A stretch of 64,000 nucleotides of DNA. Origin: Clostridia bacterium. Lineage in GTDB: Bacteria; Bacillota; Clostridia; Christensenellales; Pumilibacteraceae. Position 1 is the stretch's first letter, and each line of letters starts with the position of its first letter. Made by a program: the position numbers and the translations under genes. The stretch is from contig JAFXKH010000043.1 in the NCBI GenBank assembly GCA_017531795.1, positions 38-64,037 of the forward strand, read 5' to 3'. Shown here one piece after another: positions 3,382 to 57,526 of this stretch. Below the pieces are notes generated by a model that saw only the letters and a list, made by a program, of their open reading frames with translations, was not told the DNA's origin and made no database searches.

Positions 3382-4002
3382 ATGACAAACGAAAATCAAT
3401 TGATGACGAACAGGGTATATCTCTGCGGAAAAATTGAAACAACACCTACGCTTAGCCACGAAATATATGGCGAAGGTTTTTATGAATTTATGCTTAGCGT
3501 GCCAAGATTAAGCGAACAATTTGACGTTATCCCGATAACGCTTTCGGAAAAACTACTCGCAGAGAGAGATTTACGAGTAGGGGAGAATATTGCGATAGAA
3601 GGGCAATTCAGAAGTTATAATAAAGTGATTGAAAGCCACTCAAAACTTATGCTTACGGTTTTTGTCAGAGAATTCGTAGAGATAGAGGAAAATAAAAATC
3701 CAAACGTAGTAGAATTAATCGGTTACATTTGTAAAGAGCCGATTTACCGAATGACACCCTTATCAAGAGAAATATGCGATTTATTAGTTGCTGTAAATAG
3801 GGCGTTTAACAAATCCGACTATATACCGTGTATAGCTTGGGGGAGAAACGCGCGATACGCCGCTAATCTATCAGTTGGTACTAAAATTAATATAACCGGA
3901 AGAATCCAATCACGAAACTACGTAAAGAAAATCAATGAAGATAATAGCGAAATAAGAATTGCCTATGAAATCAGCGTAGGTAAGATAGAAACGTCTGTAT
4001 AA
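3382..4002 (+). CDS. Tandem OB-fold single-stranded-DNA-binding-like protein
   Basis: 206 aa made of two SSB-like halves. First half: NRVYLCGKIETTPTLSHE...DVIPITL...LRVGENIAIEGQFRSYN. Second half: VELIGYICKEPIYRMT...AVNRAFNKSDYIPCIAWGRNARYAANLSVGTKINITGRIQSRNY. There is no acidic C-terminal tail. Confidence 0.6.
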   Translation: MTNENQLMTNRVYLCGKIETTPTLSHEIYGEGFYEFMLSVPRLSEQFDVIPITLSEKLLAERDLRVGENIAIEGQFRSYNKVIESHSKLMLTVFVREFVEIEENKNPNVVELIGYICKEPIYRMTPLSREICDLLVAVNRAFNKSDYIPCIAWGRNARYAANLSVGTKINITGRIQSRNYVKKINEDNSEIRIAYEISVGKIETSV

Positions 4003-4004
4003 AT

Positions 4005-4030
4005 AAAATAACGGCTTTTGCCGTTATTTT
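4005..4030. terminator. Bidirectional intrinsic terminator between convergent genes
   Basis: Hairpin AAAATAACGGC-TTTT-GCCGTTATTTT, with A-tract and T-tract flanks. It overlaps the stop codon of the minus-strand gene. Confidence 0.6.
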
Positions 4031-6348
4031 ATTTTATTTTTTCTTTTGACTGCTATTATTACGATTATTGTTATTGCAACAATAAGTACGATTCCGACGT
4101 AGAACATAATTACTTGATAATATCCTGCTTCCGTATGTTTCAGATATTCGGTTTTCACAAAACACGTTGACGTCGCTCCCGTGTTTTCATTTACGACGTA
4201 AGTGATTTTTGTAAATTCACGGCCTTTTAGGAATTCTTCTTCCATTTGTACTTTCGTGCCGTTTTTAATTTTTCCGAGAACGGAAGATGTGTCTCTGTCA
4301 AAATACGTATCAACGAAATCTTTATCGCATTTGATTTCTGCGTTTGGCACGATTTGCTTATAATCTCCGCCCACAGTACCGTTAATTGCGACGTTGTTTC
4401 TGAGAACGTATCCGTTCATTTGGCCGTTAGAATCAGAGTATTCTATTCTTATCCATTTTTGTGAGTAGCCGTCTACGTATTCATCCGCAAAATTCTTTAT
4501 TAAATATGATTTTCCGACCGTCGTTTCTGCCACTTGCGGAGATGTGATTGAAGGATGTTTGTAGATTTTTACAATGCTCGTAGCCGTACAATTATTCTCT
4601 TTCGGCTCTGTATAAGGCAATTTTTTAGAAAGTGTGTTGACGTTTATGAAAGCGTAAATTCCGCCACCTTGCGTTTCAATTAATGCGTAGGCGTAATCTG
4701 TGTCTTGATACGCGCCTAAAACTATTGCGTAGGTCCCCTTGTTGATGCGTTTTGAGTCCGTAGCGGGCATTTCTGTCGGCGCGGAATAAGAATAGCAATC
4801 TATTTCTACTATATAAATATCGTGAGCAGTGTTTGTACTTTCAGGAATCGAGTTGTTGACAGAATCAATAAATTGCTTATAACTATCGTTGTTATCCAGC
4901 ATATCAATTCCCAATTCATCACGACTAATAGTTCCGTTATGGCAAGTCCCTTTTGCAATGGTAATCAAGTCACCGAATCCAAGAACGCCGTTTTTGGTAA
5001 TTTTAGTACGCGATAATGCCACGTCCGTTAATCCTTCAACAGAATAGGGGACGGAATCTGTATTTTTATAAATACCGAGATTGTCATAGCGGTACACGTT
5101 TTTAGCGTTGTCCATAAAGAATCCGTCGAAGTTTCCGTCTGAAAGAATTTGCGAAGGATTTGACAAATTTTCGTCGTATTTTATCACGCCACCACTCGTA
5201 GTCAAAACATAAATTTCCTTTCCGAAAACCTCTACGGCCTTTACGTTGTCAAGTGTTTTATTGTCAATAGAGCGGAGAAGTTTGTTGTTTTGCGTAATGG
5301 CGTATACCATTTCGCTCGATACGTCAAAAAGATCAGTCTTGACTTGTACGATGTTTTCTTGCAAATCCGCAAAGGAATATTCTTTTTTGAGTACTCCCGA
5401 CTTGCCCTCGAATTTTATAATTTTGTTTTCCGAAGAAACGAGGATGCTTCCGTCGTAAGCAATGGCTACGTCGCTTGGATGTGAAACAGGTATTTTATAG
5501 TTTCCGTGGTCGTCTATTACGGTTATACTGTGGTTTCCGTAGTCAGAAAAAGCAGTAATGCTTCCTCTCGCATCAACGTTAATTTTTTCAGAAGTGGAGA
5601 ATAAGGTCTCTGAATTACCATTTGTAAATTGGCAGATTTTTCCCGATCTCGTAGTGTAATATAGGTTTTTACCAATGGTTGTCAAAGAAGTAATTCCGCC
5701 TACGTTATAACTTTCCGCTCTGTTTGTAGAGTACAAAGAATAGGGGGTTGCGTAATAAACGTTTTCGCCGTCGTACGCGACAGAAATAATTTCGGCGTCT
5801 GTGTCAACGTCATATTTGAGCGTTTGGCTTGTCCCGTCGTTTAAATTGATCTTTGAAAGGGAGATGCGGTTTGAAAGTTCTTCAAAGACAAACAGATAGT
5901 TTTCATGAGCCACTCCGCATAAATATTTACCAATGCTGTCGGATAATACTCTTTCCGTGTCTTCGTATATGAAAATTTGAGTATCCGTAATTTCGCCTTT
6001 TAAGTTAGCAGAGAAAACTTTCCCGTTCTTTCTTGGCGTAAAAATTTCTGAATTTATAGCTTGAAAATTGTTCGCAGTAATTGAGTTATTAATAACGCTC
6101 ATATCTTCAATGTTTATTATTTTTCCGTCTTCGGTGAGCGCGTAAAGATCATTTTCGGATGCCGTTATGTATACTGGTTTAGACGTGAAGAATTTATAAG
6201 TGACAGGCGCAGTAGTTTCTTGCGCTAAGACAGAAATATGAGAAAATAAAGGCAACGAAAAAAATGCGACACAAAGCATTACCGCAAGAATTGTTGCTGT
6301 GAAAATTTTCGAAAGTTTCTTTATACCTAAAAGTTTCTTCATACCCAT
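4024..6348 (-). CDS. Large exported protein with a C-terminal TM anchor, a beta-propeller-like repeat region and SH3b-like domains; function unknown
   Basis: 774 aa. N-terminal signal/anchor (ILAVMLCVAFFSLPLFSHISVLAQE). About 450 aa of short repeats of the type ...LYYTT.SGKI.../...IYVLTTSGGVIKY.... The C-terminal third has SH3b-like segments (KIYKHPSITSPQVAETTVGKSYLIKNF...WIRIEYSD..GYVL). Final TM helix: YYQVIMFYVGIVLIVAITIIVIIAVKRKNK. Confidence 0.65.
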   Translation of the reverse strand: MGMKKLLGIKKLSKIFTATILAVMLCVAFFSLPLFSHISVLAQETTAPVTYKFFTSKPVYITASENDLYALTEDGKIINIEDMSVINNSITANNFQAINSEIFTPRKNGKVFSANLKGEITDTQIFIYEDTERVLSDSIGKYLCGVAHENYLFVFEELSNRISLSKINLNDGTSQTLKYDVDTDAEIISVAYDGENVYYATPYSLYSTNRAESYNVGGITSLTTIGKNLYYTTRSGKICQFTNGNSETLFSTSEKINVDARGSITAFSDYGNHSITVIDDHGNYKIPVSHPSDVAIAYDGSILVSSENKIIKFEGKSGVLKKEYSFADLQENIVQVKTDLFDVSSEMVYAITQNNKLLRSIDNKTLDNVKAVEVFGKEIYVLTTSGGVIKYDENLSNPSQILSDGNFDGFFMDNAKNVYRYDNLGIYKNTDSVPYSVEGLTDVALSRTKITKNGVLGFGDLITIAKGTCHNGTISRDELGIDMLDNNDSYKQFIDSVNNSIPESTNTAHDIYIVEIDCYSYSAPTEMPATDSKRINKGTYAIVLGAYQDTDYAYALIETQGGGIYAFINVNTLSKKLPYTEPKENNCTATSIVKIYKHPSITSPQVAETTVGKSYLIKNFADEYVDGYSQKWIRIEYSDSNGQMNGYVLRNNVAINGTVGGDYKQIVPNAEIKCDKDFVDTYFDRDTSSVLGKIKNGTKVQMEEEFLKGREFTKITYVVNENTGATSTCFVKTEYLKHTEAGYYQVIMFYVGIVLIVAITIIVIIAVKRKNKIK

Positions 6349-18345: not shown

Positions 18346-19638
18346 ATGCCGTTTAATCCATTTAATGAAAAACCAGAAAAAACGATTTCCTTTGAGAACT
18401 GGAAACAACTGAACTCGATTCCTTATGATAAAAATGCTACCGATGCTTATACTAAGGTCCGCATTATTCTCATGAACGGAACGGAATTTGAATCGCAGTG
18501 GTTCTTGAGGAATATGTCTCGCCACGTAACTGACAACGATCTGCGCAGAGATCTTGCCGTAGTGCGTAGACAAGAGCAACAGCAACAAAAGAAGATTTCG
18601 AGCCTGAAACCAAAAGACGAAAGTATTCTTGAACATACTATTGCTTATGAACAGCTTGCCGTTGATCTTACTGCTCTTATGGCGCAAAATGAACCTGACG
18701 ATTATGTTCGCAAGGCGTTGGACTTTGCTTTGCTTGAAGACTTTGACCATTTATATAGATACGCAGATCTTCTTGAAATGGATATGGGTATTAAAGCAGA
18801 AAAATTAGTGGGAAAATATACCGAAATTATGCCAGGTAGACCTACCGTTTCGGAGCATAGATATCCTTTGGACGATATTAAGCGCAGGATAGATAACCGC
18901 ACGGCATCACCATTGACTAAATTGCACGCGATGATTATTACTGCCGCCGAGCAACAAACAATGAACTATTATATGAATCAGGCTAATTTCTACGACTTAT
19001 CCGATTTAGGCAGAAAACTGTATAATGAAATTGCAATGATTGAAGAGCAACACGTTTCAATGTATGAATCATTGTGCGACTCATCAACGACGTGGCTTGA
19101 ATGTATGCTTATGCACGAATATACTGAGTGTTATTTGTATTATTCAATGATGCAAGACGAATGTGATGAGAGAATAAAGAAGATATGGGAAGACATACTT
19201 CGTCAAGAAATTAATCACTTGCACAACGCTGCAAGACTTCTTCGCAAATACGAAGGGAAAGAGTGGCAACAAGTAATACCCGACGGCAATTTCCCCGAAC
19301 TGATTTCTTTTTCTACTATGTCTGAGAATAATAAGAATTACGTTCGTAAAGTTCTCAAAAATACTGTCAATAATACGGCGGACAGAGAAACTTGGATTAA
19401 CGTAGATAAACTTCCAGAAACTGCTGACTTTTTCAAGTATAATAAAAAAGTAAACGGAAACGTATGCGCGGTAGCCAGTCATAAAGTAATAGATAAATTT
19501 ATTATGGAAGCGGGCGAGGACTATCGTTTTCAAGAAAAAGAGCATCCGGTAAAATGTCTTCGTTGTCGTAAAGAGGATAACGTAAACGTTGGAAGAATAA
19601 AAATGGGCAATAACTGCGGAGCATCATGCGACAAATAG
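18346..19638 (+). CDS. Ferritin-like (diiron-carboxylate four-helix-bundle) superfamily protein with Cys-rich C-terminal tail; function unknown
   Basis: 430 aa, preceded by a strong RBS (AAGGAGG). The central region carries an E...ExxH...E...ExxH pattern (AAEQQTMNYY; IEEQHVSMYE; MHEYTECYLYY; RQEINHLHNA). The N-terminal half looks like a degenerate copy. The tail is CLRCRKEDNVNVGRIKMGNNCGASCDK (CxxC...CxxxC). Confidence 0.5.
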   Translation: MPFNPFNEKPEKTISFENWKQLNSIPYDKNATDAYTKVRIILMNGTEFESQWFLRNMSRHVTDNDLRRDLAVVRRQEQQQQKKISSLKPKDESILEHTIAYEQLAVDLTALMAQNEPDDYVRKALDFALLEDFDHLYRYADLLEMDMGIKAEKLVGKYTEIMPGRPTVSEHRYPLDDIKRRIDNRTASPLTKLHAMIITAAEQQTMNYYMNQANFYDLSDLGRKLYNEIAMIEEQHVSMYESLCDSSTTWLECMLMHEYTECYLYYSMMQDECDERIKKIWEDILRQEINHLHNAARLLRKYEGKEWQQVIPDGNFPELISFSTMSENNKNYVRKVLKNTVNNTADRETWINVDKLPETADFFKYNKKVNGNVCAVASHKVIDKFIMEAGEDYRFQEKEHPVKCLRCRKEDNVNVGRIKMGNNCGASCDK

Positions 19639-20683: not shown

Positions 20684-22231
20684 TTGTTTAACATTTTATC
20701 AGAAATTAACTCCGATACTTTTGCAATTGGATTGGTGGTAGTAATTCTTTCCGTTTTAATGACCGTTGCATTAGCCCTCGTTGCAGTATTTCTTATCGGA
20801 AAGTTCAAAAGCATAGACAACGAAAATACGGTTATGGCAGGGAAGCTTAAAACCGTATACGTAGTTGCCATTATTTTGTTCGTGGGTCTGGCAATTAGAC
20901 TTTTATTTACTTTCGTAGTAAACGGTTACGGCCAGAATTTCGAATCCGTATATAATCTTGGCAAACATGTATTAAAAGACGGAAACGGCTTTGAAGGTTT
21001 CACGTCAAATTATATAGGCGTTGCGCCTATAATGGGATATTTATATGCGTTCTTTGCAGGGATTGGCACTTCATTTAACCTTGCAATAGACGATATTGCA
21101 ATGCAACTTTTCATTAAGTTGCCGTACATTCTCGCTGATATTGCGCTTTTCATTGCAATATTCGTAATTGCGAAGAAATATTGTAACCGTTATGTTGCTC
21201 TTACCATTTCTTCCCTTTATTATCTCAGCCCGCTCTCATTTGCAGTGTCGTCTATGTGGGGAAGTGACTTCTCAGTACTTGCGCTTACTTTGGTAATTAC
21301 GTTCTATTTCATGCTTAATAAGAACGCGCTTGGTATGGCGCTCGGTAGCGCAGTATCTTGTTTGGTAAGCGCGGACGCGGTAGTTATCGTTCCCGTAGTT
21401 GGCGTTTATCTCGTATATGCGTTCGTACAATCTATAATTAAAATCATTAAGGTAAAACCTTCGTTTGATATGTTGTTTGGGGACAGTTCGCTGTATAACG
21501 TATTTTACGTTCCGCTTTCAGTCGGTATAGGCGTTGCGCTTATGTATCTTCTTTCTCTTCCTGCATATTTCCCTGACGGTGTAATTACATTCCCGTCAGT
21601 TATGGAACAGCTTCTCATTAAGCCTTATCTTTTTGTCAGCGGCGCAGATGGACTTTACTATTTCTCTCAGAACGCATTGTCGATTTATACTATTTTTGGT
21701 CAGAATTACAAAATTCTCGGTACCAATTTCCCGACGGCTTTATTTGCGGGTATGTTCGCGCTTCTTGTTGCAGTAGTTTCTCTCGTTGTCTTCCTTATGA
21801 AGAAAAACAGAGCGAATCTCGTGCTTTTGACGAGTTTCCTTCTTGCAACTCTTTCGATATTCCTTATCGGCGCAAACGAGTGGTCGCTCCTTCCTTCACT
21901 TGCTCTTATGCTCGTTGCGTTTGTAGTCATTAAGGATAAGCGCATTTTGAAGGTGTTTACAATTTTGTCAACCTTTGTCGTATTAAATGCGGTTCTCGTA
22001 ATGTTCGGCGGAAATCAGATTTCTTCCATATTTACTGAGGGTTACTTCAATGTTACGACGTCGACGGGAATATCCGTATTCAATATACTGCTTTCCGTAT
22101 TTACAGTGCTTACCTATATTTACTTTGCAGTAGTGGTACTTGATATTTCACTCACGAAGAACAGAAAACTGCTTGACGTAAAACCCACCGCTTCGTTTGG
22201 CGAAGTAATGAAAAATTGGATAAGAGGATAA
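20684..22231 (+). CDS. Polytopic membrane protein, GT-C-fold glycosyltransferase-like (DUF2029/PIG-V/PMT-like)
   Basis: 515 aa with 12 or more TM segments. TTG start after GGAGG. The first-loop region (NGYGQNFESVY...SNYIGVAPIMGYLYAFF) and IKLPYILADIALFIAIFVIAKK resemble GT-C mannosyltransferase-type proteins. The assignment is tentative. Confidence 0.45.
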   Translation: MFNILSEINSDTFAIGLVVVILSVLMTVALALVAVFLIGKFKSIDNENTVMAGKLKTVYVVAIILFVGLAIRLLFTFVVNGYGQNFESVYNLGKHVLKDGNGFEGFTSNYIGVAPIMGYLYAFFAGIGTSFNLAIDDIAMQLFIKLPYILADIALFIAIFVIAKKYCNRYVALTISSLYYLSPLSFAVSSMWGSDFSVLALTLVITFYFMLNKNALGMALGSAVSCLVSADAVVIVPVVGVYLVYAFVQSIIKIIKVKPSFDMLFGDSSLYNVFYVPLSVGIGVALMYLLSLPAYFPDGVITFPSVMEQLLIKPYLFVSGADGLYYFSQNALSIYTIFGQNYKILGTNFPTALFAGMFALLVAVVSLVVFLMKKNRANLVLLTSFLLATLSIFLIGANEWSLLPSLALMLVAFVVIKDKRILKVFTILSTFVVLNAVLVMFGGNQISSIFTEGYFNVTTSTGISVFNILLSVFTVLTYIYFAVVVLDISLTKNRKLLDVKPTASFGEVMKNWIRG

Positions 22232-43061: not shown

Positions 43062-44104
43062 TGAAAAATATAGTAAAAATCGGAAACGTAAATATCGGTG
43101 GTAATCAACCTGTAACGGTTCAGTCTATGACTTCTACCGATACGGCAGACTTTAACGCGACGTTGAATCAATTGTTGGAATTAAAGCGCGTCGGCTGTGA
43201 TATAGCCCGTATTGCCGTCAGAGATGAAATGGACGTCAGCGTTTGTAAAAAAATTTTATCAGCCATCGATATTCCTCTGGTTGCAGATATTCAGTACGAT
43301 TATAAACTTGCAGTTGCTTGCGCAGACGTAGGCTTTCATAAAATCAGATATAATCCCGGCAATACTTCAACGTCAGGACTTAACGAATTGGTTTCGGCGT
43401 GCAAAGCAAATAACTGTCCTATTCGCATAGGCGTAAACGGCGGTTCGCTCGAAAAAGACATTAAACAAAAGCATGGCGGAGCATCGGCTTCGGCTCTTGT
43501 GGAAAGCGCAATGCGTTCGATAAAACTACTTGAAGATCTCGATTTTTATGACATCGTAGTGTCCGTAAAATCAAGCGATATTCGCGTTTCTTCCTTGGCT
43601 TACAGAATGCTTTACGAAAGTTCTCCTTATCCCTTACACGTTGGGATTACAGAAAGCGGAATAGGGGATCTGGCAATAATAAAATCGTCTATCGGCATTG
43701 GCTCTTTGCTCCTTGACGGTATCGGAGATACGATAAGAGTGTCATTAACGGGCGACCCTATTCAGGAAGTGTTAGTGGCTAAAAATATTATTAAAGCAAC
43801 ATCAAGCAAAAAAAACTTTGTGGAAATAGTATCTTGTCCTACTTGCGCGCGTTGTAATTATGATTTGGAACGCATTGCAAAAAAGGCAGAAGCGTTGACG
43901 AATAATATAAATAAAAAATTAAAAATTGCAATTATGGGGTGCACTGTAAACGGTCCGGGAGAAGCTTCGGACGCTGACCTTGGAATTGCAGGCGGAAAAG
44001 ACAAGGCCGTAGTATTTAAAAACGGCAAAATTCTTCTTACGGCTCGCACGGAAGATGCAGAAGAAATTTTCTTTAATATACTCAGAGAATTAATTAGTGA
44101 TTGA
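43058..44104 (+). CDS. ispG: 4-hydroxy-3-methylbut-2-en-1-yl diphosphate synthase (flavodoxin)
   Basis: VTVQSMTSTDT, IRYNPGN, IRIGVNGGSL, and cluster Cys in CPTCARC and MGCTVNGPGE. Confidence 0.93.
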   Translation: MMKNIVKIGNVNIGGNQPVTVQSMTSTDTADFNATLNQLLELKRVGCDIARIAVRDEMDVSVCKKILSAIDIPLVADIQYDYKLAVACADVGFHKIRYNPGNTSTSGLNELVSACKANNCPIRIGVNGGSLEKDIKQKHGGASASALVESAMRSIKLLEDLDFYDIVVSVKSSDIRVSSLAYRMLYESSPYPLHVGITESGIGDLAIIKSSIGIGSLLLDGIGDTIRVSLTGDPIQEVLVAKNIIKATSSKKNFVEIVSCPTCARCNYDLERIAKKAEALTNNINKKLKIAIMGCTVNGPGEASDADLGIAGGKDKAVVFKNGKILLTARTEDAEEIFFNILRELISD

Positions 44105-45587
44105 TTTTAACAAAAAGTTCATAGAAAATAATCCACAATTTGATTATATTCATTTCATCTCGGCGGTCGTAGATTCGATTAAGTTGAAGGTGTCTTTTGA
44201 AATAGTTTACAAAAAAGAGTTTGAGGAAAACTATTTTCGGGACAAGTCTTTGATCCTCATGGCTGTATCAAAACTTTTACCACCTTCCGTGCCTTTTGAG
44301 ATTAAGGCATACGCTTCCGTTTTTTCTGCAAGAGAAATAGAAAAAGCGATTTTCGAATTTATTGGAAAAGAGAGTACTCTCGTTTATTCTGCGCTGAAAA
44401 AAGATTGCGTAAACGTATCTACTGAGAACAAGTCATTGACTTTTACTTTACCCGACGGCGTAGTGGAGTATATAAACAAACAAGATTTATTGAACAGTAT
44501 AAAACAACATCTTAAACTGAAATTCTTCTCAGAATTTGACGTTAATTTAGTGGGCGTAAAAGAAAACATTGATGAGATCAACAAACGATTAAACGATTTA
44601 GAAGACGTTATAAAATATTCTTACGAGCGTCCCAACGAAGGCAGAGTAATAAAACCCGTTGGCGTTACTCACATGTACGGAAAAGACGTATCATCGCTTG
44701 CTTCGTATATTTCAGACTGCATAACCCCCGGTTTTTATACTATTTATGGCGAGATTAATGAAGTAAAAATCATTGAATACGAAAAAAAGATAAAAAAACA
44801 AGGAGAAAATCCGAAAGGCAAATTAGTGACTTTCGTACTTGATGACGGTACTGCAAGAATCAATTGTATTTTTTTCGCGCCAAAAAATAACCATGAAATC
44901 ATTAAGTATTTCGTAGATAATACGTATATAGTATCCGAAGGTTTTATTGACTATGACGTAAAAAAAGAAGACGGCTCATTGCAATTCAGAGTAATCAGAT
45001 TTTCTGGTTGTGAGAGAACTGAATTTGAAATTAATCCGGTAGTAATGATTCCGCCTCAAAAGTATAGATTTGCAAAGCCTGAAAAATACGTCACGCTTTC
45101 TCAAACGAATTTGTATTCCGAGCGTGTTCCTTTGACTTCTGATAATATTGTAGTATTTAGTCTTCTCACTACGTCACAAAATAAATTTACGACGGGAGAA
45201 CTTCTCGAATTTTCTGCTTTCAAACTCATAGGTGGACAAATAGTTGAGTATATGACTTCTCTTGTAAGACCGGGAATACTTCCTAGTGAAGAATTTCGCG
45301 GTACGCTTGGGCTTTTGAAGTCGGAAATAGAAAAAAGTCCTACGTTTGATCAAGTGCTTCCTGACTTTTATAAATTCTTTAATGGTTGTACTCTCGTATC
45401 GCATCCAATTGATTTGAACATCAGCGTAATTCGTCCGTATTTTGAAAAGCTTCATATACCGGAGCCTACGGTAATTGATATAACGTCGTGGGCGGATATA
45501 AACATTGTTAAGAAGTTCGCGCCTAAATCACCCACGAGAACTTTTATTACGGCGGAAAACTACGCTAAAATTCTTGCTTCTGTATAA
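44097..45587 (+). CDS. PolC-derived protein: PolC N-terminal domain + OB fold + catalytically degenerate DnaQ-like exonuclease fold; no PHP or polymerase core
   Basis: 496 aa. GTG start overlaps the ispG end. It occupies the polC position upstream of rimP-nusA. OB segment: GKLVTFVLDDGTARINCIFFAPKN...YIVSEGFIDYD. Exonuclease-like segment: IVVFSLLTTSQ...LLEFSAFKLIGGQIVEY...TLVSHPIDLNISVI...TRTFITAENYAKIL, collinear with the PolC sequence VVFDVETTGL...IIELAAVKVKGGEIIDKF...ILVAHNASFDMGFL...HRAIYDAEATAYLL. Confidence 0.6.
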   Translation: MIDFNKKFIENNPQFDYIHFISAVVDSIKLKVSFEIVYKKEFEENYFRDKSLILMAVSKLLPPSVPFEIKAYASVFSAREIEKAIFEFIGKESTLVYSALKKDCVNVSTENKSLTFTLPDGVVEYINKQDLLNSIKQHLKLKFFSEFDVNLVGVKENIDEINKRLNDLEDVIKYSYERPNEGRVIKPVGVTHMYGKDVSSLASYISDCITPGFYTIYGEINEVKIIEYEKKIKKQGENPKGKLVTFVLDDGTARINCIFFAPKNNHEIIKYFVDNTYIVSEGFIDYDVKKEDGSLQFRVIRFSGCERTEFEINPVVMIPPQKYRFAKPEKYVTLSQTNLYSERVPLTSDNIVVFSLLTTSQNKFTTGELLEFSAFKLIGGQIVEYMTSLVRPGILPSEEFRGTLGLLKSEIEKSPTFDQVLPDFYKFFNGCTLVSHPIDLNISVIRPYFEKLHIPEPTVIDITSWADINIVKKFAPKSPTRTFITAENYAKILASV

Positions 45588-45593
45588 AAATGC

Positions 45594-45622
45594 TTGCAAT
45601 TATATACTTAATATGATATAAT
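45594..45622 (+). promoter_or_regulatory. Near-consensus sigma-A promoter (extended -10) for the rimP-nusA-infB operon
   Basis: TTGCAA, a 17-nt spacer, then TGaTATAAT. Confidence 0.55.
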
Positions 45623-45647: not shown

Positions 45648-45682
45648 TAAGAGTGGGCTTGCAGTCCGCTCTTAACTTTTTT
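45648..45682 (+). terminator. Terminator-like hairpin in the rimP leader (candidate attenuator)
   Basis: TAAGAGTGG-(9-nt loop)-CCGCTCTTA followed by ACTTTTTT, ending immediately before the GGAG RBS of rimP. Confidence 0.5.
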
Positions 45683-45690
45683 GGAGAAAT

Positions 45691-46146
45691 ATGAACGCTC
45701 AGATTTACAATGCAATAAACGATACGATTATTAATCTCGGTTATGAAATTGTTGATATTGAAGAACGTATTGAATACGGTAGTAAAATCATTACTATATT
45801 TGTAGATAAAGTTCCTGACGGTATTAGTTTGAACGATTGTGAAGCAATTCATTACGCGATTGAGCCAATTATTGACGAACTTGATCCTACGAACGGAAAA
45901 CCGTACGTATTTGAGGTTTCTTCTCCCGGATTGGATCGCCCGTTCAAAACCTTACGTGACTTTGAGCGAAATTACAATAAAGACGTTGAAATTAAGTTAT
46001 ACGCCCCTATAAAAGGTAAGAAAACTTTTGAAGGAACACTAATAGAAAGAACGCAAGCATATACGCTAATAAGTATTAATGGCGTTGAAAATAAGATTGA
46101 AAATACGAGGATTGCTCTCGTTCGACCGCTTATAAAATTTGATTAA
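45691..46146 (+). CDS. rimP: Ribosome maturation factor RimP
   Basis: YVFEVSSPGLDRPFK motif. Position immediately upstream of nusA. Confidence 0.88.
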   Translation: MNAQIYNAINDTIINLGYEIVDIEERIEYGSKIITIFVDKVPDGISLNDCEAIHYAIEPIIDELDPTNGKPYVFEVSSPGLDRPFKTLRDFERNYNKDVEIKLYAPIKGKKTFEGTLIERTQAYTLISINGVENKIENTRIALVRPLIKFD

Positions 46147-56504: not shown

Positions 56505-56575
56505 GATTTATTTTTATAATTATATTATAATATATAAAACTTGTCAATATAAAATATAGTTAAGGTGAAGTGTAT

Positions 56576-57526
56576 ATGAAAAAAATATTTATATCTTTGT
56601 CAATAATATTAACGTTATTGTTTTCAATTATGTCGATTACGGCATGCGACTTTATAAAAGCGGGCGAGTTTAATCTCGTTGCGCCAGACGGCGCGCCCGT
56701 TGTTGCTCTCGCGGATATGTGGGGTGAAAACTTTGGCGAAGCGAAAATAGAATATAACGTAACGCTTGAAAGTTCACTTAACGCCGAGTTTGTTAAGGGA
56801 ACTGAGTTTATCGTTGCGCCCATTAATATCGGCGCAAATATTCACAACGCCGCGCAAAAAGACTCTACTAAGTATGATTATAAACTTATGAACGTTACGA
56901 GCTGGGGCGTTTTATATATAATTAGTAATGAAAATAAATACAACGAACTCGGTAGTAACGTTAACGAATTTCTTTCTCAATTTGACGAAAAACAAATAGA
57001 TACGATTGGACTTCAAGCAATCCCCGGAAAAACTGTTGATTATTTATTTAAGCAAGCGAATGCGCAAGTGACTATAAACGGCTCTGAAGCGTCAACTATT
57101 CAGCAAAAGATTAAAAGTAATACTCCCGTAACGGCAGTTCTCGGCGAACCGGCAATTACAGCGCTTAAAAATAGCGGAGCAAAATTTGACGTGCTTGCTT
57201 CCGTAAGCAATGCCTTTAATCTTGTTACGGGTAAAGATTTTCCTATGGCAGGTATGTTTGTTCGCTCAGACGTGGCGGAAAATAACTCAGCGCTTGTTTC
57301 TGCTATTAATGAGAGAATCAGTAAAAGCGTAAAAACTTTTAATGATGATCCTACTTTTATGAAAGATAAAACAATAGAGAACAGTACTTTAAACGCAAAC
57401 GTTATTGCGCAGGCTGCTCCAAAAATGAACGTTAAGTTCAAAAATTCAGCGGACTCGAAAGATTCCGTAAAATTCCTTCTAGAAAAACTCGGTATTACCG
57501 TTAGCGACGATTTATTTATTTTATGA
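56576..57526 (+). CDS. ABC transporter substrate-binding lipoprotein (NMT1/TauA/SsuA-like)
   Basis: Signal peptide with lipobox (LLFSIMSITAC). Periplasmic-binding-protein-like length. ATG at 56576 is preferred over GTG at 56570. Coupled to a NitT/TauT-type permease. Confidence 0.7.
   Translation: MKKIFISLSIILTLLFSIMSITACDFIKAGEFNLVAPDGAPVVALADMWGENFGEAKIEYNVTLESSLNAEFVKGTEFIVAPINIGANIHNAAQKDSTKYDYKLMNVTSWGVLYIISNENKYNELGSNVNEFLSQFDEKQIDTIGLQAIPGKTVDYLFKQANAQVTINGSEASTIQQKIKSNTPVTAVLGEPAITALKNSGAKFDVLASVSNAFNLVTGKDFPMAGMFVRSDVAENNSALVSAINERISKSVKTFNDDPTFMKDKTIENSTLNANVIAQAAPKMNVKFKNSADSKDSVKFLLEKLGITVSDDLFIL

Follow-up and report, generated by a model that had tools for sequence, protein, structure and literature searches.

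What stands at the polC position of a 64,000-nt stretch of DNA from a Clostridia bacterium (assembly GCA_017531795.1, contig JAFXKH010000043.1, positions 38 to 64,037 of the forward strand; hereafter the window), and what does it tell about the replication machinery of its host? In Firmicutes, PolC is taken to be the universal and essential replicase of the leading strand. Around this position, the genes run in the order pyrH-frr-uppS-cdsA-dxr-rseP-ispG-ORF-rimP-nusA-ylxR-ylxQ-infB-rbfA-nrnA-truB. The open reading frame (ORF) between ispG and rimP (44,097-45,587, plus strand, GTG start, stop codon included) encodes only 496 aa, against about 1400-1450 aa for PolC. The gene is complete, its orthologues aligning with it end to end. 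A first-pass annotation, made from the letters alone, had noticed this intact ORF in the polC slot with its start overlapping ispG, and both the overlap and the gene order were as it described. We find that the protein joins three PolC-type domains, the last of which is a dead exonuclease, and that it belongs to a large family for which we found no prior description. On balance, we favor reading it as a polymerase-less descendant of PolC that now serves as a clamp-tethered, non-catalytic accessory subunit of the replisome.

Three PolC domains and a dead active site

We built an AlphaFold2 (AF2) model of the window protein from 14 orthologues (mean pLDDT 81). The model has two alpha/beta subdomains at residues 1-170, an OB barrel at residues ~185-306, a low-confidence stretch at residues 312-342, and a DnaQ-type fold at residues 350-496. 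Projected on the plus strand of the window, the layout is a tandem KH-like N-terminal domain (NTD; 44,097-44,606), an OB fold (44,649-45,014), a linker of about 45 residues (residues 307-349; 45,015-45,143) in place of the PHP-N of PolC, and a DnaQ-fold domain (45,144-45,584). The boundaries proposed in the first-pass annotation were close to these. Its statement that the PHP halves and the polymerase core are absent also stood. Pfam found a single domain in the protein, the OB fold PF01336 (residues 215-291, E 9e-6), with no PHP or pol3-alpha match; the polymerase core gave nothing at E<=10. None of the 60 family members scanned had a PHP or pol3-alpha domain either, while a PolC from a related locus scored DNA_pol3_alpha at 1e-56 in the same test. 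The window protein terminates right after the exonuclease (Exo) domain with ...NYAKILASV, and the C-terminal clamp motif of PolC is absent.

In NCBIfam, DEDD exonucleases and the PolC equivalog matched residues 343-461 weakly, and phmmer matched the protein to the Exo structure of Thermotoga maritima PolC (2p1j) at E 1.6e-6. The best PDB match of the whole model in Foldseek was Enterococcus faecium PolC (9qpc; E 1.6e-11 over 358 columns), followed by DnaQ/epsilon-type exonucleases. The Exo region (residues 350-496, pLDDT ~80-90) matched the Exo domains of PolC, DnaQ, epsilon and DinG at E 1e-7 to 1e-11. A profile of active family members gave 215 bits to T. maritima PolC Exo, 188 to E. faecium PolC, 137 to a CRISPR-associated DnaQ, and 103 to epsilon. 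For the OB fold, hhalign against the OB of E. faecium PolC returned Prob 96 % and E 3.8e-9, and Foldseek retrieved the OB domains of RPA and of PolC 3f2b.

The NTD was less straightforward. The first-pass annotation had judged the protein collinear with PolC by eye. Homology was established by profile-profile comparison, but the NTD part of it is invisible by eye or against a single PolC. When the NTD without the OB fold was aligned to the NTD of E. faecium PolC alone, whose sequence was reconstructed from an alignment, hhalign gave 0.2 %, equal to 20 shuffles. The apparent collinear match to E. faecium PolC was therefore carried by the OB fold, and detecting the relation requires profile-profile comparison with Clostridial PolCs. 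Against the N-termini of 14 Clostridial PolCs, the NTD scored Prob 95 % (E 3.6e-8, 130 columns). The family NTD scored Prob 97.2 % (E 2.9e-11) against 77 non-redundant PolC N-termini, with 0.2 % for the reversed control, and the NTD of the inactive clade described below (the dead clade), taken alone, reached 89.5 % (E 2e-6). An NTD-only hidden Markov model fell in register with residues 12-173 and 16-170 of two PolCs at i-E 1e-4; the best of 140 shuffles gave E ~0.9. The closest PDB matches of an NTD-only AF2 model (pLDDT 87, pTM 0.73) were the tandem KH domains of NusA, at E ~1e-3 in Foldseek. As the PolC NTD is resolved in no PDB entry (PMC12592400), a structural search of the PDB cannot reach it. 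According to the passage of PMC3919608 that cites its ref. 18, a KH-like fold is predicted for PolC NI/NII and for tau domain V, which are protein-interaction modules. Thus the NTD, OB and Exo domains of the window protein are homologous to those of PolC and stand in the same order.

We read the DEDDh columns from an alignment of 284 family sequences, 268 of them outside the dead clade. In ExoI, the window protein has S355 where 265 of the 268 have Asp, and L357 where 266 have Glu. Likewise, N441 of ExoII and T485 of ExoIII each replace an Asp found in 265 of the 268. The general-base His of ExoIII, the H of the HRAxxD motif in members outside the clade, falls in a 2-residue deletion of the window protein, which has no His there. 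The four acidic substitutions had been called correctly in the first-pass annotation; its assignment of the His to T480 was approximate, as that column is deleted. The window protein is a pseudo-exonuclease in which all five DEDDh residues are gone.

The dead domain has nonetheless been kept. Intact orthologues of 493-498 aa occur in the same context in 14 or more independent assemblies. The NG86 omega (dN/dS) of the whole protein, computed for its nearest orthologue pairs (69-79 % identity), was 0.08-0.19. In the same genome pairs, omega was 0.07-0.17 for rimP, 0.10-0.26 for rseP and 0.08-0.17 for dxr. By domain, it was 0.10-0.27 for the NTD, 0.03-0.23 for the OB fold, 0.08-0.40 for the linker and 0.05-0.21 for the dead Exo. 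With dS at 1-2 these omega values are approximate, and the comparison with neighboring genes is internal to each genome pair. The clade also has invariant motifs of its own, such as KLHIP at residues 451-455. The protein, dead domain included, is under strong purifying selection, and the earlier view of a maintained pseudo-enzyme rather than a truncated assembly was upheld.

A large family in the polC slot

A word-indexed search retrieved 14 close relatives of 493-498 aa with 31-48 % identity, none of which has the DEDDh residues. We then used an exhaustive profile search covering 1.84 billion cluster representatives. At E<1e-30, the dead-clade profile found 219 of these representatives, each from an uncultured Firmicute. 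The best 150 matches were nearly all 505-545 aa long and aligned over almost their full length, with no long protein among them. Active members were retrieved by this profile at E 1e-35 to 1e-68, again over nearly the full length. Seeding the search on an active member (P0019) gave 490 clusters at E<=1e-10, all of them from metagenomes or metagenome-assembled genomes (MAGs). The few named matches read 'MAG: exonuclease domain-containing protein [Firmicutes bacterium]', and no cultured organism was among them. The distant members have the same NTD-OB-linker-Exo layout with an intact active site (FDxETTG, NxxFD, HRAxxDA), and D-x-E-[TS]-T is present in 235 of 255 family members. P0085, P0105 and P0146 are active variants, not dead ones, reading FDFEAT, GYD and HRAMAD at these sites.

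The dead members (the window protein, P0002-P0016 and two cluster mates) were monophyletic in 40 of 40 neighbor-joining (NJ) bootstraps. Since they form a single branch, catalysis was lost once, in the ancestor of the dead clade; its deepest member, P0016, retains the first Asp. The hosts include Ca. Protoclostridium species and Clostridia, Christensenellaceae and Eubacteriales MAGs of animal guts. The stand-alone dead module noticed in the window is thus real, but it is not a one-off: it belongs to a clade nested in a large family with intact DEDDh residues. The stand-alone NTD-OB-Exo architecture is old and widespread, and only the catalytic loss is specific to the dead clade. Outside this clade, P0153 (533 aa) carries N-E-S-K at the four DEDD acidic positions; in this isolated, partly degenerate case the active site seems to have decayed a second time, independently.

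The linker distinguishes the family from PolC. Between the OB and Exo domains, 14 PolCs carry about 85 residues of PHP-N (KRVELHLHT...AITDHG...IYGxEGYL), whereas the short family has its unrelated linker, predicted to be disordered (pLDDT <50 at residues 312-342). Within it lies the best-conserved non-catalytic motif of the family, Y323-x2-[VI]326-x-P328-x2-Y331-x4-Q336-x2-[LM]339-[FY]340. Y323 is conserved at 96-100 %, P328 at 98-100 % and Q336 at 85-100 %, and the Y323, V326 and P328 columns are 96-100 % conserved in dead and active groups alike. The second part of the motif in the window protein, QTNLY (residues 336-340; 45,102-45,116, plus strand), is a candidate beta-clamp-binding motif by its resemblance to the consensus QL[SD]LF. 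Of 255 family members, 196 have Q-x-x-[LMI]-[FY], and its median distance to the ExoI Asp downstream is 23 residues. Q336 is invariant in the dead clade, where the motif reads QxxLY or QxxMY, ending in Y instead of F. Among full-length PolCs, 109 of 111 have Q[LIM][STC][LM]F (QLSLF type) within their last 12 residues, and 0 of 111 have a clamp-type motif between OB and Exo. Three contrasts favor the linker peptide, Q-x-[SND]-L-F in the family, as a putative clamp-binding motif: the PolC tail motif is lost, none exists in the PolC OB-Exo gap, and most short forms have one there. The first-pass annotation had guessed at a clamp-interacting accessory factor, and the conserved Q-x-x-L-[FY] peptide gives that guess a concrete candidate by sequence resemblance. 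An abundant subgroup (P0085, P0105, P0146 and P0286, e.g. L023:10001-11596; 531-546 aa), with the atypical active signature FDFEAT, HNxxGYD, HRAMAD, retains Y-x2-[VI]-x-P-x2-Y without Q-x-x-L-F, so that clamp tethering, if real, is not family-wide.

The same gene order as in the window was found at all 16 related genome loci of the dead clade, some of them partial. The polC slot is occupied by all seven distinct family proteins whose contig shows both neighbors. The active members P0019, P0138 and P0286 and that of the metagenome locus L027 lie between ispG/rseP and rimP-nusA; the 2.3-kb contig of P0024 is too short for a judgement. We further surveyed 80 metagenome loci with a NusA 45-62 % identical to that of the window. 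Upstream of rimP, 15 loci have a full-length PolC (1402-1499 aa), one (L027) has the short form, and many others have unrelated genes. For instance, a 214-aa ORF or another unrelated gene precedes rimP at L044, L047, L050, L052, L072 and others (NusA ~48-50 % identical). Thus the dxr-rseP-ispG-polC-rimP block, which the first-pass annotation had taken as highly conserved, is less fixed than assumed among relatives. The short family occupies the ancestral position of polC, but polC need not stand there in this part of the tree. For the same reason, occupancy of the slot alone is no proof of a missing PolC.

Performing tblastn with the PolC PHP-C/Pol3 core, we found no match in the 64-kb window or in 27 related short-form loci. 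The same core taken from the nearest canonical PolC (L031) gave matches of which 120 were listed; these 120 were without exception canonical PolCs of other families, with >=63 % identity, and no short-form contig carried any of them. At another of the 80 metagenome loci (L086:5695-9366, plus strand; contig Ga0228536_1000002, 1.69 Mb), a 1223-aa Exo-less PolC stands directly upstream of rimP, with contiguous PHP, pol3-alpha, fingers and HhH and no RNase_T domain. We considered an Exo-less PolC as the partner of the short form and found no support for such a pairing, as this one example fills the slot itself and has no short form adjacent.

Gene boundaries and the rest of the window

The GTG start of the ORF and the end of ispG overlap by 8 nt (GTGATTGA; 44,097-44,104, plus strand), which suggests translational coupling of the two genes. 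The NCBI model of this gene (IKM44_03140, 'hypothetical protein', 442 aa) begins at M55 and omits 54 residues (window 44,097-44,258). All orthologues conserve these residues, which makes GTG the right start and the public one a mis-call. The N-terminus MxDFNxKF is kept in every orthologue, with M1, F4, N5 and F8 invariant or nearly so.

A 103-nt spacer separates the ORF from rimP. The rimP promoter that the first-pass annotation placed about 100 nt downstream has a counterpart here in a strong promoter-like site, TTGCAA-17-TATAAT with a TG extension (45,594-45,622, plus strand), identified by consensus match only. A 12-bp stem-loop followed by a T-run (45,648-45,684, plus strand) lies directly upstream of the rimP start at 45,691. 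It could end transcription of the upstream unit, or act in the rimP-nusA leader as an autoregulatory attenuator of the NusA type. An Rfam scan of the spacer brought no rimP-leader or other family to threshold.

The longest ORF of the window encodes 828 aa, and Pfam annotation of 30 further ORFs returned ordinary housekeeping genes with no C-family polymerase. A 206-aa ORF (3382-4002, plus strand) matches SSB (PF00436) at residues 108-195 only and has an N-terminal extension of about 107 residues without a Pfam match, a layout that is unusual for a bacterial SSB. Four ORFs have no Pfam match at E<=1e-5: 4024-6348 (minus strand, 774 aa), 18,346-19,638 (plus, 430 aa), 20,684-22,231 (plus, 515 aa) and 56,570-57,526 (plus, 318 aa). 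Of the 59 non-overlapping ORFs of the window, 54 lie on the plus strand and only five, the 774-aa ORF among them, on the minus strand. The window as a whole has a GC skew of +0.08, an AT skew of +0.04 and a purine excess of +5.5 %. Strong strand asymmetry and purine excess are associated with PolC-type genomes (PMC4070872, PMC3814617).

Known relatives, competing explanations and meaning

Compared with PolC (NF001688, TIGR01405), the short protein has a homologous NTD, OB and DnaQ-type Exo in the same order at the same locus, together with a candidate clamp motif of the QxSLF type. It differs in lacking the PHP halves, the palm, thumb and fingers, the HhH and the C-terminal tail, in carrying the clamp-like motif in a new OB-Exo linker and not at the C-terminus, and, in this clade, in its dead exonuclease. 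The Exo-less PolCs of Timinskas et al. 2013 (PMC3919608) show likewise that exonuclease and polymerase are separable in Clostridial PolC + DnaE1 lineages. They keep NTD-OB-PHP-Pol3-HhH without Exo, whereas the short protein is the reciprocal product, NTD-OB-Exo without PHP-Pol3. DnaQ, the epsilon subunit of Pol III, is also a stand-alone DEDDh fold, and the wider family shares with it an active site and a clamp-like peptide beside the Exo domain. However, the similarity to epsilon is far below that to PolC Exo (103 vs 215 bits), the short protein has an extra NTD and OB, its motif is N-terminal to the Exo, there is no epsilon-type C-terminal alpha-binding segment, and the active site is lost in the clade. 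Naturally inactivated DnaQ-like domains, as in many bacterial Pol I and the PolB G2 group (PMC12926913), also retain a dead DEDD fold, presumably for structural reasons, but those are still fused to an active polymerase, whereas the dead domain here stands without any polymerase.

Two comprehensive surveys of C-family polymerases (PMC3919608; PMC12926913), which drew on complete genomes alone and required the polymerase domain to be intact, report Exo-less PolC and stand-alone DnaQ subunits but no NTD-OB-Exo protein. Our full-text literature searches found no description of a stand-alone or truncated PolC N-terminal/Exo protein, and the database names are generic. The family of ~500-545-aa stand-alone NTD-OB-Exo proteins thus appears to be previously undescribed. 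The new element is a module derived from PolC/DnaQ that stands as a protein of its own and includes a sub-clade inactivated in nature.

In E. coli, epsilon binds the clamp through a motif directly behind its Exo domain, QTSMAF, and stabilizes the alpha-beta complex independently of catalysis. By our favored reading, a PolC descendant would have lost both PHP halves, the polymerase core and the C-terminal clamp tail and retained the tandem KH-like NTD, the OB and the Exo fold, and the resulting large family would have replaced polC at ispG/rseP - X - rimP-nusA in many uncultured gut Clostridia. Active members would probably be a separate, epsilon-like 3'-5' proofreading or accessory subunit of the replisome, tethered to the beta clamp by the linker Q-x-x-L-F peptide. 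The OB fold may contact DNA, and the tau-domain-V-like NTD may contact a replisome partner, either the polymerase or tau. There is precedent for proofreading across polymerases: the DnaQ domain of PolC can correct DnaE errors in trans in Bacillus subtilis, according to a study cited in PMC12926913. The dead clade would most likely be a purely structural subunit that bridges partners while bound to clamp and DNA, another activity, e.g. a PHP domain, doing the proofreading; survival in a purely structural role is suggested because the whole protein, dead domain included, stays under purifying selection. Clamp binding, the partner of the NTD and any role in replication are what we infer from these features.

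Several observations weigh against this reading. The nearest solved folds of the NTD are the RNA-binding KH domains of NusA, and the gene adjoins rimP-nusA-infB. NJ trees of the Exo, of OB+Exo and of all shared columns left the family and PolC unresolved (0-2 of 30 bootstraps); because they do not separate the two, a single origin of the family rests on the shared linker motif Y-x2-[VI]-x-P-x2-Y. The candidate clamp peptide ends in Y and not F in the dead clade, a few members have no such motif, and the active P0085/P0105/P0146 subgroup is without Q-x-x-L-F. The first of these observations would suit a protein of RNA metabolism, ribosome maturation or transcription, whose KH-like NTD and OB fold bind RNA and whose dead fold is a binding module. 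Such a role would also fit the NTD-only match to ribosomal KH-like proteins, the position directly upstream of rimP-nusA-ylxR-infB in overlap with ispG, and the fact that DEDDh folds act on RNA in many families, RNase T and oligoribonuclease being matched by the family profile. We find it improbable, as the position was inherited from polC and not newly acquired, the Exo domain is closest to the PolC DNA proofreader, a KH-like fold is predicted for the protein-interaction modules of PolC and tau as well, and the clamp-type motif points to DNA replication. That the ORF might be a decaying pseudogene or a mis-assembled fragment of polC is suggested by its length, one third of that of PolC, and by the loss of every catalytic residue. 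This idea is refuted by the many intact ORFs in independent assemblies with identical neighbors, by an omega that is housekeeping-like and low in every domain, by invariant motifs of the clade's own such as KLHIP, and by a clean stop codon followed by the spacer and rimP.

The main alternatives concern the whereabouts of the polymerase. In one, a normal or Exo-less PolC is encoded elsewhere in the genome, and the short protein is a subfunctionalized duplicate serving as an extra exonuclease or accessory module; in the dead clade it would be a regulatory or structural decoy competing for the clamp or for single-stranded DNA. This deserves serious consideration, although we lean against it. The PolC-type genome signature persists in the window, many relatives have polC outside the slot, and the Exo-less PolCs (NTD-OB-PHP-Pol3-HhH) of Clostridia and Negativicutes (PMC3919608), together with the one at L086, show that Exo and polymerase can uncouple. 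Yet that lone Exo-less PolC sits in the slot unpaired with a short form, the lack of any long protein among the best 150 family-profile matches means that a co-resident PolC is not a recent duplicate, and none of the 120 PolC-core matches listed links a PolC polymerase to a short-form contig. The other alternative is a specific version of our favored reading and does not exclude it: the PolC polymerase has been lost, DnaE1 replicates alone, and the short protein is a clamp-bound, epsilon-like subunit of DnaE1, whose PHP proofreads and so makes the Exo dispensable in the window's clade. We regard this as rather unlikely. Several findings agree with it: the short gene lies exactly where relatives have polC, PolC-core similarity is absent from the window and the 27 short-form loci, a new clamp motif would have arisen in the linker once the C-terminal one had gone, and in Clostridial DnaE1 both the PHP active site and a putative epsilon-binding site are conserved (PMC3919608). 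Every Firmicute surveyed has PolC (PMC3919608, PMC12926913), which counts against it; but the family is seen only in uncultured MAGs, and a report of PolC in all Firmicutes from complete genomes would follow from that (PMC12926913). Also against it are the strand bias and purine excess of the window, typical of PolC genomes (PMC4070872), the fact that polC is not always next to rimP in relatives and so could be elsewhere, and a view limited to ~20-64 kb per genome. Only tentatively, then, do we entertain that a broad set of uncultured gut Clostridia dismantled PolC, moving to DnaE1-only replication with an NTD-OB-Exo protein as a separate, epsilon-like, clamp-tethered subunit, whose exonuclease was then inactivated in the Protoclostridium-like clade to leave a replisome protein of purely architectural function.

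Many uncultured gut Clostridia carry only the non-polymerase front end of PolC at the usual polC site, and the bacteria with this protein probably build their replication machinery differently. A new class of antibiotics, with ibezapolstat as its example, acts on PolC (PMC12592400, PMC11963600). Should the polymerase truly have been lost, these bacteria would assemble their replisome in another way and be intrinsically insensitive to drugs against PolC; they would also illustrate how a built-in proofreader turns into a separate subunit. With DnaE1 as their only replicase, they would be the first Firmicutes to lack the PolC polymerase, and their replisome a natural intermediate between the PolC and the DnaE/epsilon types. 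If PolC persists elsewhere in their genomes, the family would be a new accessory factor of the replisome or of repair that is in no survey. Either way, the dead clade is a clean natural experiment, in which what a proofreading subunit does structurally is set apart from what it does as a catalyst.

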